Position numbers and translations under genes: made by a program. From a virus (taxonomy: Duplodnaviria > Caudoviricetes), in IMG/VR virus record IMGVR_UViG_3300025036_000012, positions 1 through 26,413 of that record: 26,413 nucleotides of DNA, one strand, 5' to 3'. Every line of letters starts with the position of its first letter. Within the stretch, counting starts at the first letter, position 1. The notes beneath the pieces were generated by a model that did no database searches, had not been told where the DNA came from, and was given only the letters and a program-made list of their open reading frames with translations. Below, in pieces: positions 1 through 26,413 of the stretch.

Positions 1-617
1 AATACCCCGCTCTTGTTTCCATAGTGGGCGAGAACCCAAAGTGCCCAAATCGGGCGGAACTGTGATACCATCTGTGTGCCTATCTGCCCTTGCACGCGAT
101 AGATATCACCCATTGACCGTATCCTGCCGCCCTCGGCCATCTGAATCGCCACCGTTGCGCAGCGCAAGCACCATTCGGGACGCCGGCGCTCCTCAGGAAC
201 AGTCCGGGGTTTCTTAACAACGGGAATATGGGGGAATCGAGGAAAGAACGCGGTTACGGGTCCTGGGTTGGGGCCCCAGGGCAGGATACACTCCGTGCTC
301 GGCGCCCACGCACTCTCGCCAAAGAGGTTGATCCCAATCTGGGATTGCCAAGACACCCTCGCGGCCTTGAGCTGCTCGATATAGGCGATCAACCGCATTG
401 GGTCTTCTGGGTGATAACTCATCCGACGCTCATAAAACAGATAGAGCCCAGCCGTAAGAATTTGATGCTGTTTCGCATCCAAGCTTAGCCCCCACATCAT
501 TTGGAGAGCTTGGTCAACAGACCCCGCATGCTCGGCGATTTCGTGCATGTGTTGCCGTAATGGGGCAATCGTCTCCTTCACCTGGTATTTGGATGGCGGC
601 TTATTCTCTGGCGACAT
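1..617 (-). CDS. Hypothetical protein, 3'-truncated by window edge (MSPENKPPSKYQVKETIAPLRQHMHE..., at least 205 aa, one CxxC)
   Basis: Read manually: ATG at 617 preceded by AAAGGAG, frame open to position 1. Absent from the ORF track because it has no stop in the window. Confidence 0.7.
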   Translation of the reverse strand, partial: MSPENKPPSKYQVKETIAPLRQHMHEIAEHAGSVDQALQMMWGLSLDAKQHQILTAGLYLFYERRMSYHPEDPMRLIAYIEQLKAARVSWQSQIGINLFGESAWAPSTECILPWGPNPGPVTAFFPRFPHIPVVKKPRTVPEERRRPEWCLRCATVAIQMAEGGRIRSMGDIYRVQGQIGTQMVSQFRPIWALWVLAHYGNKSGV

Positions 618-6251: not shown

Positions 6252-7121
6252 TTAATCGTTCCCTCGATATACCCCACCCTCCGGCAGGTACCCGCCGATG
6301 TTCCAGAATAGTATCGGCTCAGGAAAGCGGGTTCCGCGTTCTATTTCCATCTGGAGCCAATGCCAGGACTTCATATCATAATGAGGGTGTGCCGGAAAGG
6401 GCACCGGGATGTCAAGCGGGTCATAATAGCCAAGCTTTGGATAAGCTTGGATGCTTACATACGGAGCAATACGCCCGATATTCTGTGCTATGCGTCTAGC
6501 AACGGCACTCGGCGGCCTGCCAATAGTAATCAAGCAGACCTTCTTAAAGTCGTCCATGTGGGCTGCTAGCACACCAGATGAGATGATGCCCGACCCAGCC
6601 ACCATCACCAGCGTGCCGCCCAGCACATACTCTGGTAGCTCGCGCCCGGCTTGCCTCGCCGCGCTGAAACCCTCTGGACATGCGAGTCCCGCAGGGACAA
6701 TCTGAAAGCCGCGAGCACAACCAGCCCGCGAGAGGAATGCCTGTGATATTGTTAGTCGGGTGGCTGGACATTGGACAATCTCGGCGCCGAGTGCTTGGGC
6801 GTATGCTGCCGGCTCCGGGATGCGCCCTTCCTTAATCATCTTCGCAGTAAACGGATAGCCAATCATAGCCTTGATCCCCGTGGCTCGGCAAAGCGCAGCA
6901 ACCCCAATCCCAAGGGTGCTGACGCGGGTGTCCCAGCATGCCATGCCCTGAATGCCTGCGTTGCCCTCTATAAGCGCACACAACCCACGACATTTCGCCT
7001 GGGGCGGTGCTGGGGGGCGTCCGAACTTATCATCACGCTTCACCCAAACGCAGTGACCGCCGATATCGTGTTCCTCTACTGGCGTCTTTGCGGCAAACAG
7101 GTCTTCTATCTTAAGAGCCAT
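6252..7121 (-). CDS. PLP-dependent enzyme, fold type II (ACC deaminase/D-cysteine desulfhydrase-like)
   Basis: KTPVE...VWVKRDD...AKCR (PLP lysine), ALGAEIV, VAGSGIISSGV phosphate-binding loop, YDMK, ILFWNIGG. Confidence 0.8.
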   Translation of the reverse strand: MALKIEDLFAAKTPVEEHDIGGHCVWVKRDDKFGRPPAPPQAKCRGLCALIEGNAGIQGMACWDTRVSTLGIGVAALCRATGIKAMIGYPFTAKMIKEGRIPEPAAYAQALGAEIVQCPATRLTISQAFLSRAGCARGFQIVPAGLACPEGFSAARQAGRELPEYVLGGTLVMVAGSGIISSGVLAAHMDDFKKVCLITIGRPPSAVARRIAQNIGRIAPYVSIQAYPKLGYYDPLDIPVPFPAHPHYDMKSWHWLQMEIERGTRFPEPILFWNIGGYLPEGGVYRGND

Positions 7122-7620
7122 TTGCAAGCCCCTCAATGAGTCGGCGTAGGTGGGATTCCGCCGTGAGACGGTAAGCTGTTCTCTCGCGTTCTATCACTTC
7201 CCTCCGGGGGTGTCCGAAGGCGCGGAACGGTGAACAGAACAAGTCTTTCGGGACGCCATCGGCGATGGGGCCGTCGCGAGCAACAACACAAAGACGACAG
7301 TTCCCATCGATGTCCAGCCACATTAGCACGACCGCATCCGAGAACTGCAAACCTCCTGGGTTTGTCACCTTCGTGCTCGCCGCCCGGCAGGGGGAGGCAA
7401 AGAGAACCTCGTCGACTCCCGCCAGAACGAGAAGCCGCTCGAGCACCCCCAGTTCCTTACGCCATTCTGCTTTCGATCGGGCTTCCCCCACGAAGAAATG
7501 AAGCACCCGGCGGTCGAACTCCAGGATGACAACCCCGCCAACGGGAACGAAGTCAAGAAGTTTCGACCCCGGTGTGCCGTAAAGCGTTTCCCAAGGTTCC
7601 TGAAGAGAAGATAGCCTCAT
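7111..7620 (-). CDS. Hypothetical protein (169 aa)
   Basis: CAGGAGG SD; TAATG overlap with the upstream small ORF; overlaps the start of the PLP gene. Confidence 0.65.
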   Translation of the reverse strand: MRLSSLQEPWETLYGTPGSKLLDFVPVGGVVILEFDRRVLHFFVGEARSKAEWRKELGVLERLLVLAGVDEVLFASPCRAASTKVTNPGGLQFSDAVVLMWLDIDGNCRLCVVARDGPIADGVPKDLFCSPFRAFGHPRREVIERERTAYRLTAESHLRRLIEGLANGS

Positions 7621-7742
7621 TATGCATCGTCCTCCTGGGATTGCCAGAGCCAGAGCGGGCGGCGTGGCTCTCCAAGGTAGCAGCAGATATCCACAGCATA
7701 GACCTCACGCCATTCTGAAGTGTCTTGTGGTCGCTTCGTCAT
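7620..7742 (-). CDS. Small protein, 40 aa (MTKRPQDTSEWREVYAVDICCYLGEPRRPLWLWQSQEDDA)
   Basis: Read manually: AGGAGG-AAACG-ATG, first ORF after promoter P2; its TAA overlaps the next ATG. Confidence 0.6.
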   Translation of the reverse strand: MTKRPQDTSEWREVYAVDICCYLGEPRRPLWLWQSQEDDA

Positions 7743-7782: not shown

Positions 7783-8259
7783 TCAATGCAGGGTATAATG
7801 CTTCCCACGGCGCGTGTCAAGTCCTTTGGCGCTTTTATCTTCTTTTTCTTTCTTGCCTCGGTTTGCCTCAGTCTCTATGCATATATACGGGAACCCATTC
7901 TGGGGGCCCGTAAGTAGCAGCGGGGACGGAGCGCGAATCCCCGCCTTAAACCATCCACGAGTCGCAAAGGGGTCGTCTGCATTAATATCTGCCGCGACTT
8001 GCGCTCCATAGCCGCGAGACAGTCGAAAAATAACGGGGAGGGCGGACTGTGTAGCAGGTTGTATCCACGCTACGATCAAGGAGGAATCGCCCGCCTCATC
8101 CCCGTCCTTCAAGGAGAAGGTTAGGTAAATCAGCACAATGTAAATCAATATGCTAAGCAATATAACGATTATGCATATAAGGCACGCGATGATTCGCCAC
8201 GCTTGTATTTGCTCTTGACACTGAGGACGATATACCAGCCATCTCACGGGTGGCTTCAT
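7783..8259 (-). CDS. Single-pass membrane protein, hypothetical
   Basis: GAGGTG SD and ATGA overlap with the upstream gene; hydrophobic IIACLICIIVILLSILIYIVLIYLTFSL; 3' end runs through P2. Confidence 0.55.
   Translation of the reverse strand: MKPPVRWLVYRPQCQEQIQAWRIIACLICIIVILLSILIYIVLIYLTFSLKDGDEAGDSSLIVAWIQPATQSALPVIFRLSRGYGAQVAADINADDPFATRGWFKAGIRAPSPLLLTGPQNGFPYICIETEANRGKKEKEDKSAKGLDTRRGKHYTLH
7792..7860 (-). promoter_or_regulatory. Sigma70-type promoter P2 with A-rich upstream element
   Basis: TTGACA (7820-7815), 17-nt spacer, TATACC (7797-7792); upstream A-tract shared with P1. Confidence 0.75.
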
Positions 8260-8498
8260 ATCTCACCTCGCTCATACGCGGCGAGCAGTTCCGTTCGCAC
8301 ATCATTGCGGGCGTCATCAGGCACCATCTCATCCTCAAGCGCGGCTTCGATTGCGTCCGCCTTGTTCAAACGGATATGGTCACTGCAGCGCTTGACCCAT
8401 TCGTAGAGTTGGCGCTCTGTGAATTCAGGGTCGGGCAAGTCGCAATCCTTGCCCGTCACGCCAGGCGGGTACCCGCCAGCCCAGTTATTCAACATCAC
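8256..8498 (-). CDS. Small acidic hypothetical protein (YPPG motif)
   Basis: AGGAGG upstream of the GTG/ATG start; overlaps both neighbours. Confidence 0.7.
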   Translation of the reverse strand: MMLNNWAGGYPPGVTGKDCDLPDPEFTERQLYEWVKRCSDHIRLNKADAIEAALEDEMVPDDARNDVRTELLAAYERGEI

Positions 8499-8934
8499 GC
8501 AACCTCCTGTCTAATAGGAACGCGTAACTATCAATTAGAACCCTTATTTCACTCACGAGTTCATCTACCATCGTATAATCCCCCCATGTCCAGGTCTGAT
8601 GCTTTCCCGCCGCCGTTCGCGCTCGTTTCAGTGCTTGCTTGAGGCGATCCTCCTTCTCCGCTAGTCGAGTCCTTTTACCTGTCGTCATCGTTTCTGTCAT
8701 GGCGCCTCCTGCGCCGAAGTCTTCAGCCCAGGCAACGGCTTCCGCCTGTGAATCGAGATACTCACTGTCGAGCGGGTCTGCCTCACCCAAGTCGAAGTCC
8801 TCTTGCGAGGCGAAGACTGAAGCTTCCCATTCTGAGCGGTCATCGCTTTCGCGGACATTAAATACCTTCCCGTCACCAGAGGTTGCCACCCCTCCGCGAG
8901 TGCCAAACATTGAGGTTGACCAACTCCATTTCAT
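8485..8934 (-). CDS. Early hypothetical protein: acidic N-terminal half plus helical C-terminal half with its own internal start (ATG 8700)
   Basis: AAGGAG 6 nt before ATG 8934; in-frame AGGAGG-CGCC-ATG at 8700. Confidence 0.75.
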   Translation of the reverse strand: MKWSWSTSMFGTRGGVATSGDGKVFNVRESDDRSEWEASVFASQEDFDLGEADPLDSEYLDSQAEAVAWAEDFGAGGAMTETMTTGKRTRLAEKEDRLKQALKRARTAAGKHQTWTWGDYTMVDELVSEIRVLIDSYAFLLDRRLRDVE

Positions 8935-8951
8935 TGTTCTCTCCTTGATTT

Positions 8952-9006
8952 AGGTTAGGACGGGGCAGATGCCCCGTTTCGCCCTGCCAGGCTCATCGGC
9001 TAACCT
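8952..9006 (-). ncRNA. Type I hammerhead ribozyme (variant core CCGAUGA), predicted cleavage after GUC, between 8959 and 8958
   Basis: Minus-strand RNA reads AGGUUAG-CCGAUGA-GCCU(GGCA)GGGC-GAAA-CGGGGC(AUCU)GCCCCG-UC-CUAACCU. Stem I has 7 bp, stem II 4 bp with a GNRA loop, and stem III is complete. All core residues are present except U4>C. Confidence 0.88.
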
Positions 9007-9048
9007 TCATTTCCTCCTTGTTTGGTAATAGTTCAGCATCACATACAG

Positions 9049-9118
9049 AGTATAATGCTCCTCCGCAGCCGTGTCAAGTCCTTTTGGGTTCTTTTCTGGG
9101 TTTTTCTTTCTTGCCTCG
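9049..9118 (-). promoter_or_regulatory. Strong sigma70-type early promoter P1 with A-rich upstream element
   Basis: TTGACA (9077-9072), 17-nt spacer, TATACT (9054-9049); A-tracts upstream. Confidence 0.85.
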
Positions 9119-9194
9119 AAGTCAGGCAGAATCGCGGGAGCCCGCATGAACACTAGAAGAACGGGGTTGCCTTTAGACGCGCTTTCCCATGCCC

Positions 9195-9240
9195 CAAAGA
9201 AAAAGAAAGAAAATGCTCAAAGGGCTTGAAAAGCCGCTGT
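9195..9240 (+). repeat. Inverted degenerate copy of the P1/P2 upstream and -35 block; may double as the late-operon terminator on the minus strand
   Basis: AAAGAAAAAGAAAGAAAATGCTCAAAGGGCTTGAAAAGCCG versus P2 AAAGAAAAAGAAGATAAAAGCGCCAAAGGACTTGACACGCG; no recognisable -10. Confidence 0.55.
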
Positions 9241-9244
9241 GCTC

Positions 9245-9904
9245 TTACCGAGGCGGTTCGGGCTGCCATTCTTCGTTGATGTAGGGGCGGATGAGATTCA
9301 GCGTCCGAAGATACCGTGCCCGGTCGGGCAGAGGAATGAACCGAATAAAGTCTTTGTAGAGAGTTCGGTAAAGAGCTATCTGCGGCGGCTCGATCGCCGC
9401 AATCGCACTGACCGTGAGTTCATCGGCTGCTGGATACCACTCTCCACTCAGAATACGCCGATAGAGCTTGAGGTCGACCGGGATAGCCTGAAGATGGGGA
9501 TAGTCAACGATGCTCTTCCACCTGCCCCCCCAAATCAAGCCGTAACTCTCAACAATCTCGCCGAGCTTTCGCCAAGGGTATTTCTGGTGGCTCCAAGAGG
9601 CAGAATCAAAGATCCCGCTCAGTGGCTTGCCGTTTGCGGTGCCCACAATATCGATGGCAAGCCCGAAGGCGTGCGGCCCCGGGGTCTTGATGCGCGAATA
9701 GCCTTTCTCATACACTTCCGCTTGTCGAGCGGGACTACGGAAGGTCTCGAAAGCGGCAAACGGAAGCCCCAGCTCTGAAATCTGCCTGAGGATTTCCTCG
9801 ACAACTTGCCCGAACGGCTGAAATAGATACTGGGTGTCCCGGACGATTCTCGTGCTCTTCCATTCGGGCTGCGTCTTAAGCCACTCTAGGTGCGTCTGTG
9901 CCAT
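9245..9904 (-). CDS. Endolysin, M15 family metallopeptidase (L-Ala-D-Glu peptidase-like)
   Basis: ETFRSPARQAEVY, PHAFGLAIDIV, WGGRWKSIVDYPHLQ. Start moved to ATG 9904, 7 nt after AAAGGAG. Confidence 0.88.
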   Translation of the reverse strand: MAQTHLEWLKTQPEWKSTRIVRDTQYLFQPFGQVVEEILRQISELGLPFAAFETFRSPARQAEVYEKGYSRIKTPGPHAFGLAIDIVGTANGKPLSGIFDSASWSHQKYPWRKLGEIVESYGLIWGGRWKSIVDYPHLQAIPVDLKLYRRILSGEWYPAADELTVSAIAAIEPPQIALYRTLYKDFIRFIPLPDRARYLRTLNLIRPYINEEWQPEPPR

Positions 9905-25444: not shown

Positions 25445-25774
25445 GCCCTCATAGGGGGATGGGGGCAACTTTAAGCCTCGTTTCTGCCAGAATTCTTCCG
25501 CTATACGGAAGAAATCGGCGTTTGTGGCGGCTGCTTTTATCGCGGCGCTAAAAGCGTAGGCGTCTTCAAAGTCTTTGCCAACGAACACTGGCATTGGCTG
25601 TTTAGCAAGCTGCTCCAGTGCTTTCTTGGCATCCTCTAGGCTCTGGGCGTCAAGAACAGGTGAAAAGAAGCGCATGAGGCGGTCTTGTGGTAGACCCTTT
25701 GGCGGTCGCTTCTTTTGATTAAGAAAGCGATAGAGCTCGGTGTCGTCTATGATTATGAACGGTTCCTCTTTCAT
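25436..25774 (-). CDS. Hypothetical protein coupled to the JAB-like gene (candidate immunity/partner)
   Basis: AAGGAGGT SD; ATGA overlap with the upstream stop. Confidence 0.65.
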   Translation of the reverse strand: MKEEPFIIIDDTELYRFLNQKKRPPKGLPQDRLMRFFSPVLDAQSLEDAKKALEQLAKQPMPVFVGKDFEDAYAFSAAIKAAATNADFFRIAEEFWQKRGLKLPPSPYEGLI

Positions 25775-26413
25775 AGTCCAAATACCTCCTTCGGTATTCT
25801 GTGGTATTCATATCCATATCTGTCGCAAAGGCGAGCCGTGGCTTGGAAACAAGCTTCGCTGAATGGTCTCCCTGCTGCCATATACCCGTCTATCAGTTCG
25901 TTCCATTGGGCATACAGGAATCCCGACGACCTCACTCTTATAGCGTTCTTGCCCGGTATTATAATGTTAACATAGTCCCGGTTCAGCATAATACTTTGCT
26001 TGTAGCGGGGATCAGACATCACGCTCCACAGGTCGCCGGGCCCGAAGAAGTGGTTCTGGCCGCTCCTATGCACTGGGTGGGTATGCACGGTGTAATAGCT
26101 TTCCCCGTGTTCCGGGTTCGGTATCTGAACCCTGGTCTTGGTTCCTATCTTGTAGGGCTCAAAGGGACGCGCCGTCTTTCCGGAAGGGTCAATCACGAAC
26201 GAGACACCGGTCTCCTTACCCGTTTTCACGGTTGTCTCCCACATCTCGGCGAACTGGTTTCTCGTAGCTTCGTTGAACCCCGGCACCAGCTTCGTTGGGT
26301 CTTTGGGAAGTGGTTTCACGGGGGGCGGTTTCACAATAGGTGGGGGCACGGGCTTCATGGGACGCGGTTTCACAATAGGGGGCAGTGGACGCGGGGCTGG
26401 TGTTGGAAAGACC
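25771..26413 (-). CDS. C-terminal part of a larger protein (probably MuF/minor head) with a Pro-rich linker and JAB/MPN-like domain; 5'-truncated
   Basis: Frame is open to the window edge; Pro/Lys-rich linker; KETG...YTVHTHP...FGPGDL; lies just before the protease, where MuF normally sits. Confidence 0.6.
   Translation of the reverse strand, partial: VFPTPAPRPLPPIVKPRPMKPVPPPIVKPPPVKPLPKDPTKLVPGFNEATRNQFAEMWETTVKTGKETGVSFVIDPSGKTARPFEPYKIGTKTRVQIPNPEHGESYYTVHTHPVHRSGQNHFFGPGDLWSVMSDPRYKQSIMLNRDYVNIIIPGKNAIRVRSSGFLYAQWNELIDGYMAAGRPFSEACFQATARLCDRYGYEYHRIPKEVFGL

Follow-up and report, generated by a model that had tools for sequence, protein, structure and literature searches.

In 2011, Perreault and colleagues reported in the text of PMC3088659 that tandem hammerheads of a prophage cleave within polycistronic RNA, both in vitro and in Escherichia coli, and put forward the proposal that long transcripts are processed into gene-sized mRNAs. 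Passages in two reviews describe the role of self-cleaving ribozymes in phages as still open (PMC6765202, PMC6155905), and the text of a further paper places type I hammerheads in a different setting, that is, in the 5' untranslated regions of fungal RNA viruses (PMC13725137). The conserved core of the ribozyme is reported to tolerate change poorly at the position that concerns us here: replacement of U4 by C 'considerably decreases activity in vitro' according to the text of PMC3088659, and a mutational scan of another hammerhead found, in the sections dealing with the CUGA region, that every single mutant of that region was low in activity (PMC9901934). The supplements to the 2011 study apparently place an Aedes construct labelled cCgauga among the inactive examples, with further defects present in that construct, and its text also cites a viroid variant carrying U4C (Ambros and Flores 1998) which still supported infectivity, its activity, although lowered in vitro, being sufficient in vivo.

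The locus described here lies on the minus strand of a 26,413-nucleotide contig (the whole stretch of DNA that was analysed, hereafter 'the window') from an uncultivated groundwater phage; all 24 sequencing runs listed with the contig are aquifer or groundwater DNA. The contig is that of a tailed phage, with head, tail and lysis genes upstream and nuclease, helicase and resolvase-like genes downstream, all of them on the minus strand, and its 26 kb probably amount to less than the whole genome. Elsewhere in the window, the early region contains a PLP-enzyme-like gene (6252-7136, minus strand; PHROG 7093, 'threonine dehydratase'), a search with which gave one locus at 32% identity; genes of this type occur in phage DNA-modification clusters. 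A 200-aa ORF without a PHROG match (25771-26373, minus strand) stands ahead of the head protease gene, and contains an HTHP motif which we take to be reminiscent of JAB-type metalloproteins.

The hammerhead motif in the window

Read directly from the letters, minus-strand positions 9006 to 8952 form a type I hammerhead motif, in which three helices surround the core and stem I is open-ended (Table 1). All of the consensus core (C3 U4 G5 A6 N7 G8 A9, G12 A13 A14, A15.1-U16.1 and H17) is present apart from U4, and owing to C4 the motif is, by its letters, a variant rather than a consensus type I hammerhead. Hammerhead cleavage yields an upstream product ending in a 2',3'-cyclic phosphate and a downstream product beginning with a 5'-OH, and the predicted cut falls 24 nt ahead of the ATG at 8934. 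The original prediction had claimed a type I hammerhead with all three helices and the core, a C at U4, and a cut at this distance from the ATG that leaves a 5'-OH end; the first of these claims was upheld by sequence, folding and shuffled controls, the second by the C at 8998 and its recurrence in phages with different stems, and the third in its geometry, for a site that is itself predicted.

Table 1. Positions of the hammerhead and neighbouring features in the window
Feature	Position	Strand	Remarks
P1, sigma-70-type promoter match	9077-9049	-	TTGACA-17-TATACT; 11/12 consensus; putative
Shine-Dalgarno serving ORF a (25 aa) in the long allele	9013..9019	-	
AGGAA microhomology	9011..9015	-	long-allele junction: 429 more bases (424 + second AGGAA)
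Last five codons and stop of ORF b	8993..9010	-	stop = core U7-G8-A9
Type I hammerhead motif	8952..9006	-	stems I-III, core CCGAUGA, GAAA, GUC site
Stem I	9006-9000 with 8958-8952	-	6 bp and a possible 7th
Core CCGAUGA	8999-8993	-	position 4 = C at 8998
C replacing conserved U4	8998	-	sequence; same C in contigs L179 and L198
Stem II, loop GGCA	8992-8981	-	4 bp
Last loop II base A	8985	-	predicted partner of U1.7; family covariation
GAAA	8980-8977	-	core segment after stem II
Stem III	8976-8961	-	pairing in sequence
GUC site	8961-8959	-	sequence
Predicted cleavage site, after C17	8959/8958	-	3' product begins 8958; sequence and established chemistry
U1.7	8952	-	predicted tertiary partner of A8985; family covariation
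Shine-Dalgarno of downstream gene	8941..8946	-	12 nt past predicted cut
Downstream 149-aa gene	8485..8934	-	no PHROG/Pfam match; near-identical relatives only
P2, paralogue of P1	about 7820-7792	-	about 1257 nt downstream of P1

A descriptor of our own found a single type I match in the 26-kb window, and 200 dinucleotide shuffles of the window gave six loose matches and none equally strong. Type II and type III hammerheads were sought in the window and none was found, nor was any other ribozyme, either there or in the additional DNA of the long allele described below. An Rfam scan of the whole window reported nothing at the ribozyme locus, while a scan of a 221-nt piece returned RF03152 (RAGATH-1-hammerhead) at 31.2 bits, against a gathering cut-off of 56.3, and RF00163 (Hammerhead_1) at 17.9 bits, against 34. 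In the comparison with Rfam by which the motif was to be checked, both hammerhead models therefore match below their cut-offs. The best C4 relative scanned (L110) also falls below 34, at 30.5 bits with Hammerhead_1, and across the family data the Rfam cut-offs miss C4 type I copies.

When folded in isolation, a strand of 55-61 nt adopts the hammerhead in both its minimum-free-energy (MFE) and centroid structures (z -2.16 and -2.64); for a 116-nt strand the hammerhead is the MFE structure, but not the centroid (z -1.07). As the short-allele transcript grows, the modelled probability of stem I drops from 0.9 to 0.15, and it lies near 0 in longer folds of the long allele, in a model that leaves tertiary contacts and ribosomes out of account and that also gives stem I a probability below 0.1 in 9 of 26 C4 and 48 of 143 U4 relatives. 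A candidate anti-ribozyme helix of the long allele was set aside as uninformative (stem I at 0.43, against a shuffled median of 0.57).

Two alleles of an early gene junction

Relatives of the locus were gathered by aligning contigs from 4 of the 24 runs to window positions 8700-9300. In all four runs contigs leave the window at 9015 for a different sequence (the long allele), with branching at 9011-9015. One contig each in X1 and X3 runs across the junction seen in the window (the short allele), with 30 letters only on the short side, an overhang under the bar for counting a contig as bridging; in the other two runs, X13 and X19, no contig was found over the short junction. A metagenome scan (92 loci) returned three copies of the ribozyme, namely L203, which is identical to the window, L179, which has the short allele, and L198, which has the long allele and is 99-100% identical to the window on both flanks. 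The first two bridge the short junction.

The extra 429 bases of L198 encode ORF a (25 aa) and ORF b (77 aa), both with well spaced Shine-Dalgarno sequences, and ORF b extends through stem I of the ribozyme to terminate at the core UGA. Its remnant in the window is a five-codon ORF, MKVSR, with a Shine-Dalgarno sequence merely 2 nt upstream. ORF b occurs in seven sequence variants on 16 contigs and the downstream gene in 13 variants on 25 contigs; judged from these sequences the long allele is common in the population, allele frequencies being drawn solely from protein-cluster counts and from four runs out of the 24. All seven variants of ORF b end in EMKVSR, and because its terminal Arg requires C4 (a U4 would leave the protein one residue shorter), C4 appears to be fixed in this phage population; no other letter was listed within the ribozyme in the four runs examined.

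The GC content of the extra DNA is 55.7%, as against 56.2% for the phage. An insertion sequence was considered as its origin and rejected, there being neither a transposase nor a terminal inverted repeat, and these absences, together with the phage-like GC content, make a deletion via the 5-base microhomology the likelier direction of change. The short allele is thus probably a deletion between two AGGAA repeats, and the long allele ancestral. The two alleles also differ by one base (window 9033, L198 2537) in a weak hairpin just after the predicted P1 start, and the intergenic stretch of L198 that separates ORF a from ORF b (2690-2770) contains two GC-rich hairpins (no Rfam match, z -1.18). 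Distant relatives, sought by way of the 149-aa protein, were found in 0 of 31 candidate viral contigs, and protein searches with it and with ORF b recovered in each case only the query's own cluster.

Transcription from the putative promoter P1 would start near 9042. P1 and P2 lie in paralogous promoter cassettes (window 9043-9118 and 7786-7860, minus strand; 62 nt at 71%), which share an identical 18-nt A-rich upstream tract and are each followed by a similar Shine-Dalgarno leader. In L179 (1-438) the match to the window ends at 7696, inside the first ORF after P2, with unrelated sequence beyond, which marks another variable cassette among the early genes.

The reading that we favour, and consider somewhat better than evenly probable, is that the C4 hammerhead works, more slowly than a consensus ribozyme, and cuts at a gene junction of the early transcript, its leader position in the window being due to the 429-base deletion. 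Transcription of the long allele from P1 would take in ORF a, ORF b and the 149-aa gene, and the RNA would fold as it is made, with U1.7 docking on A8985 of loop II, and would be cut between 8959 and 8958, at a lower rate than by a U4 ribozyme. The upstream piece bearing ORF a and ORF b would then end in a 2',3'-cyclic phosphate, and the downstream mRNA would begin with a 5'-OH and a leader of 24 nt that contains a Shine-Dalgarno sequence of its own, after which each unit would be translated, and would decay, separately from the other. Cleavage of the short allele at this site would do no more than trim away 84 nt of leader. The release of an RNA of about 85 nt, as originally envisaged, would therefore be peculiar to that allele; the 5' product predicted from the long-allele sequence is about 513 nt and contains the two small genes. 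RNA with a 5'-OH end is described in the text of PMC7967978 as stable in E. coli and as degraded by RNase J1 in Gram-positive bacteria, so that a 'stabilised' end, and indeed the sign of any effect, would depend upon the host. Against the favoured reading stand the scores below both Rfam cut-offs, the folds of longer transcripts, which disfavour stem I, and the slowness of U4C.

The C4 core and the stem I-loop II pair across phages

Viral contigs were scanned by pattern and the matches filtered for pairing; since pairing was itself the selection criterion, weight was placed on unselected features (that is, context and the tertiary pair). The distinct type I hammerheads retained comprise 26 with C4, this copy included, which fall into 21 flank clusters, and 149 with U4. 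In the class whose first pair is A-U, a complete scan gave 46 C4 loci, of which 29 fold; so do 123 of 130 U4 loci out of an estimated 1100, and the C4 share of the class is about 3%. Variants at G5 (A, C or U) behave differently, none of 13 pattern matches folding (p 5e-5 against C4). In prokaryote genomes, folded C4 copies were found in 4 of 30 loci. Taken from the sequences, U4C is tolerated in phages where changes of G5 are not. A literature search of openly available text found no description of U4C or CCGAUGA in a phage. Several contigs (L228, L230, L237, L271, L279, L295) have multiple type I hammerheads at successive gene junctions, and on some (L228, L230, L237, L248) C4 and U4 copies lie side by side; in L067 a tRNA match (232-292, minus strand) lies just downstream of a C4 hammerhead.

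These counts bear upon whether U4C might instead have disabled, wholly or nearly so, a once functional junction ribozyme, leaving a relic that persists on account of its recent origin and of its overlap with the end of a coding sequence and with a ribosome-binding region. Such a history would accord with the slowness of U4C and other CUGA mutants in the relevant parts of PMC3088659 and PMC9901934, with the occurrence of C4 and U4 copies mixed in four flank clusters or on the same contigs (a mixture that repeated origin of C4 from U4 would produce), and with the 97-100% likeness of the relatives, which leaves no covariation visible at the locus. We nevertheless consider it unlikely, although with a chance that deserves some weight, in view of several observations: (i) none of the 13 G5 variants folds, as against 29 C4 loci and about 1000 U4 loci of that class that do; (ii) C4 and the pairing have been kept in a five-member cluster whose stems II and III have changed; (iii) the present copy has lost neither its stems nor the 1.7/loop II pair; and (iv) the viroid U4C variant was still infectious, according to the text of PMC3088659. 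Against a working ribozyme, it may also be that the C persists at this locus owing to the Arg codon that overlaps it, or to drift while the population is still young.

The tertiary pair offers a feature on which the copies had not been selected. Stem I is 6 bp long in 149 of 175 copies, and the bases at 1.7 and at the end of loop II vary together: U1.7 is accompanied by A in 29 of 30 copies, and A1.7 by U in 118 of 139 and by A in four. By flank cluster, loop A is found in 20/20 with U1.7 as against 3/97 with A1.7. The reciprocal U-A and A-U covariation is seen among viral loci L217-L415 with a 6-bp stem I. The present copy retains the covarying pair, in U8952 and A8985, and a contact between stem I and loop II is thus predicted by covariation. 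Covariation had been named as a check on the ribozyme; it is visible across the family at this pair, but not among the relatives of the locus, because they are 97-100% alike. The contact with loop II had originally been assigned to a distal extension of stem I (UGA/UCA), which can indeed form here, but a comparable extension in 25 of 171 relatives is at chance level (23.5 +/- 3.6 when permuted, with 193 of 500 permutations as high), and the extension was rejected as a family feature. The covariation points to U1.7 and the last loop II base as the better explanation of the contact.

A Hoogsteen contact between U1.7 and a loop II A is known from fast minimal hammerheads (O'Rourke et al., as related in the text of PMC11875169), where it is also stated that A2.7 can pair with U1.7, rivalling the tertiary contact and halving turnover; A2.7 is present in this copy. 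A U...A motif appears in Fig. S5 of Perreault (PMC3088659, supplement 5), and a literature search of openly available text found no description of the flipped pair. The family data indicate that the contact between 1.7 and loop II can be flipped.

Genomic context and comparison with known hammerheads

Stop codons were counted for ORFs of at least 40 aa that stop within -15 to +4 of C3, with 11 U4 copies having less than 300 nt upstream excluded. In 119 of 164 phage copies (21/26 with C4, 98/138 with U4) an upstream gene ends this close to the ribozyme; shifted and antisense control windows gave 0-2 of 25-26 for C4 and 2-8 of 128-138 for U4, these controls being biased low, as upstream windows lie inside the same ORF and compact phage genomes put intergenic elements near stops. 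A Shine-Dalgarno-led start within 35 nt after the cut accompanies 12/26 C4 and 63/149 U4 copies, in a count made without a control. Promoter matches of at least 10/12 within 110 nt are found for 3 of 164 family copies; an apparent promoter ahead of L001 was discarded for its wrong spacing and went unscored by the promoter scan. In these sequences the long-allele arrangement is the family norm and the geometry of the window the exception. A literature search of openly available text found no description of stop-codon overlap, and the words 'stop codon' do not occur in the main text of PMC3088659.

The overlap raises the question of whether translation gates the ribozyme, with ribosomes terminating on ORF b covering stem I and the core and so blocking folding. 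The cut would then occur only without upstream translation, the slowing by C4 would be sufficient to give this competition weight, and the deletion would have removed the gate. A terminating ribosome has a footprint large enough to cover stem I and the core, the stop of ORF b is the core UGA, and at 58 of the 119 flank clusters a stop overlaps or adjoins stem I or the core, while at 87 it lies within 15 nt. In the folding model a blocking footprint abolishes stem I (by construction), and stem I of the short allele folds with a probability of 0.9 once transcribed. These points are opposed by the distribution of the stops, which scatter from -15 to +4 in all frames, as space economy would give; by the frequency of the core UGA as a stop, which is no higher with C4 (6/26) than with U4 (25/138; p 0.59); and by the upstream helix masking the core in some folds of the long allele, which is no stronger than in shuffled sequence (85 of 200 shuffles being as inhibitory). 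Gating at this locus is, on balance, quite unlikely, and the broader proposition that phage type I hammerheads are stop-codon-gated switches, with U4C a selected slow timer and a gated/ungated allele pair here, is likewise one to which we give a low probability. Read-through to a second UGA was also considered as a reason for C4, and is not enriched.

Least probable is a version of the account first proposed, in which the ribozyme evolved as a leader element, stabilises the first early mRNA through its 5'-OH end and sets free a functional RNA of about 85 nt. In its favour, the geometry is true of the window and L179, the short allele is bridged by L179 and L203, and the text of PMC3088659 puts the HHphage of haloviruses HF1/HF2 at 13 nt upstream of the first early gene and close to a mapped 5' end. 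Against it, that geometry is confined to the short allele, whereas the long one is common (ORF b on 16 contigs, the downstream gene on 25) and looks ancestral, promoter-proximal copies number 3/164, a strong promoter match lies within 110 nt in only 1 of 45 members without an upstream ORF, and the piece of about 84 nt has no Rfam match besides the ribozyme itself.

The closest described system to the gene-junction hammerhead favoured here is that of Perreault 2011 (PMC3088659), the text of which shares with this locus a three-helix core, a position at a phage operon junction and small unannotated neighbours. Gene content and L198 place the present copy between co-oriented small phage genes; it differs in occurring once in the window rather than as several copies flanking genes (one copy each in the contig, L198 and L179), in its C4 core, in the stop codon inside that core, and in having a deletion allele beside a promoter. 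The gene-junction arrangement is already in print in that study, and the general picture is unchanged by our findings.

Both Rfam families, RF00163 and RF03152, have the type I topology, core and GUC site of this copy, and RF03152 also matches the purine-rich stretch upstream of it; in contrast to the one-pair stem II of RF03152, which is accompanied by an upstream hairpin, the present stem II has its full 4 bp. Hammerheads with the U1.7-A Hoogsteen contact share with it U1.7 and an A that ends a four-base loop II, but its loop is GGCA rather than GNRA, its U1.7 has A2.7 as a possible alternative partner, and the flipped A1.7-U pair prevails among phage type I copies (118/139). The viroid variant bears the same U4C substitution, which in our case has apparently become fixed in the population of a DNA phage; among phages C4 recurs in 21 unrelated flank clusters. 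Set beside these, the locus is a phage ribozyme of a known kind with a genuine change in its core, and its natural allele pair makes it a compact test system, in which one ribozyme can be compared in the presence and in the absence of an upstream gene that stops in its core.
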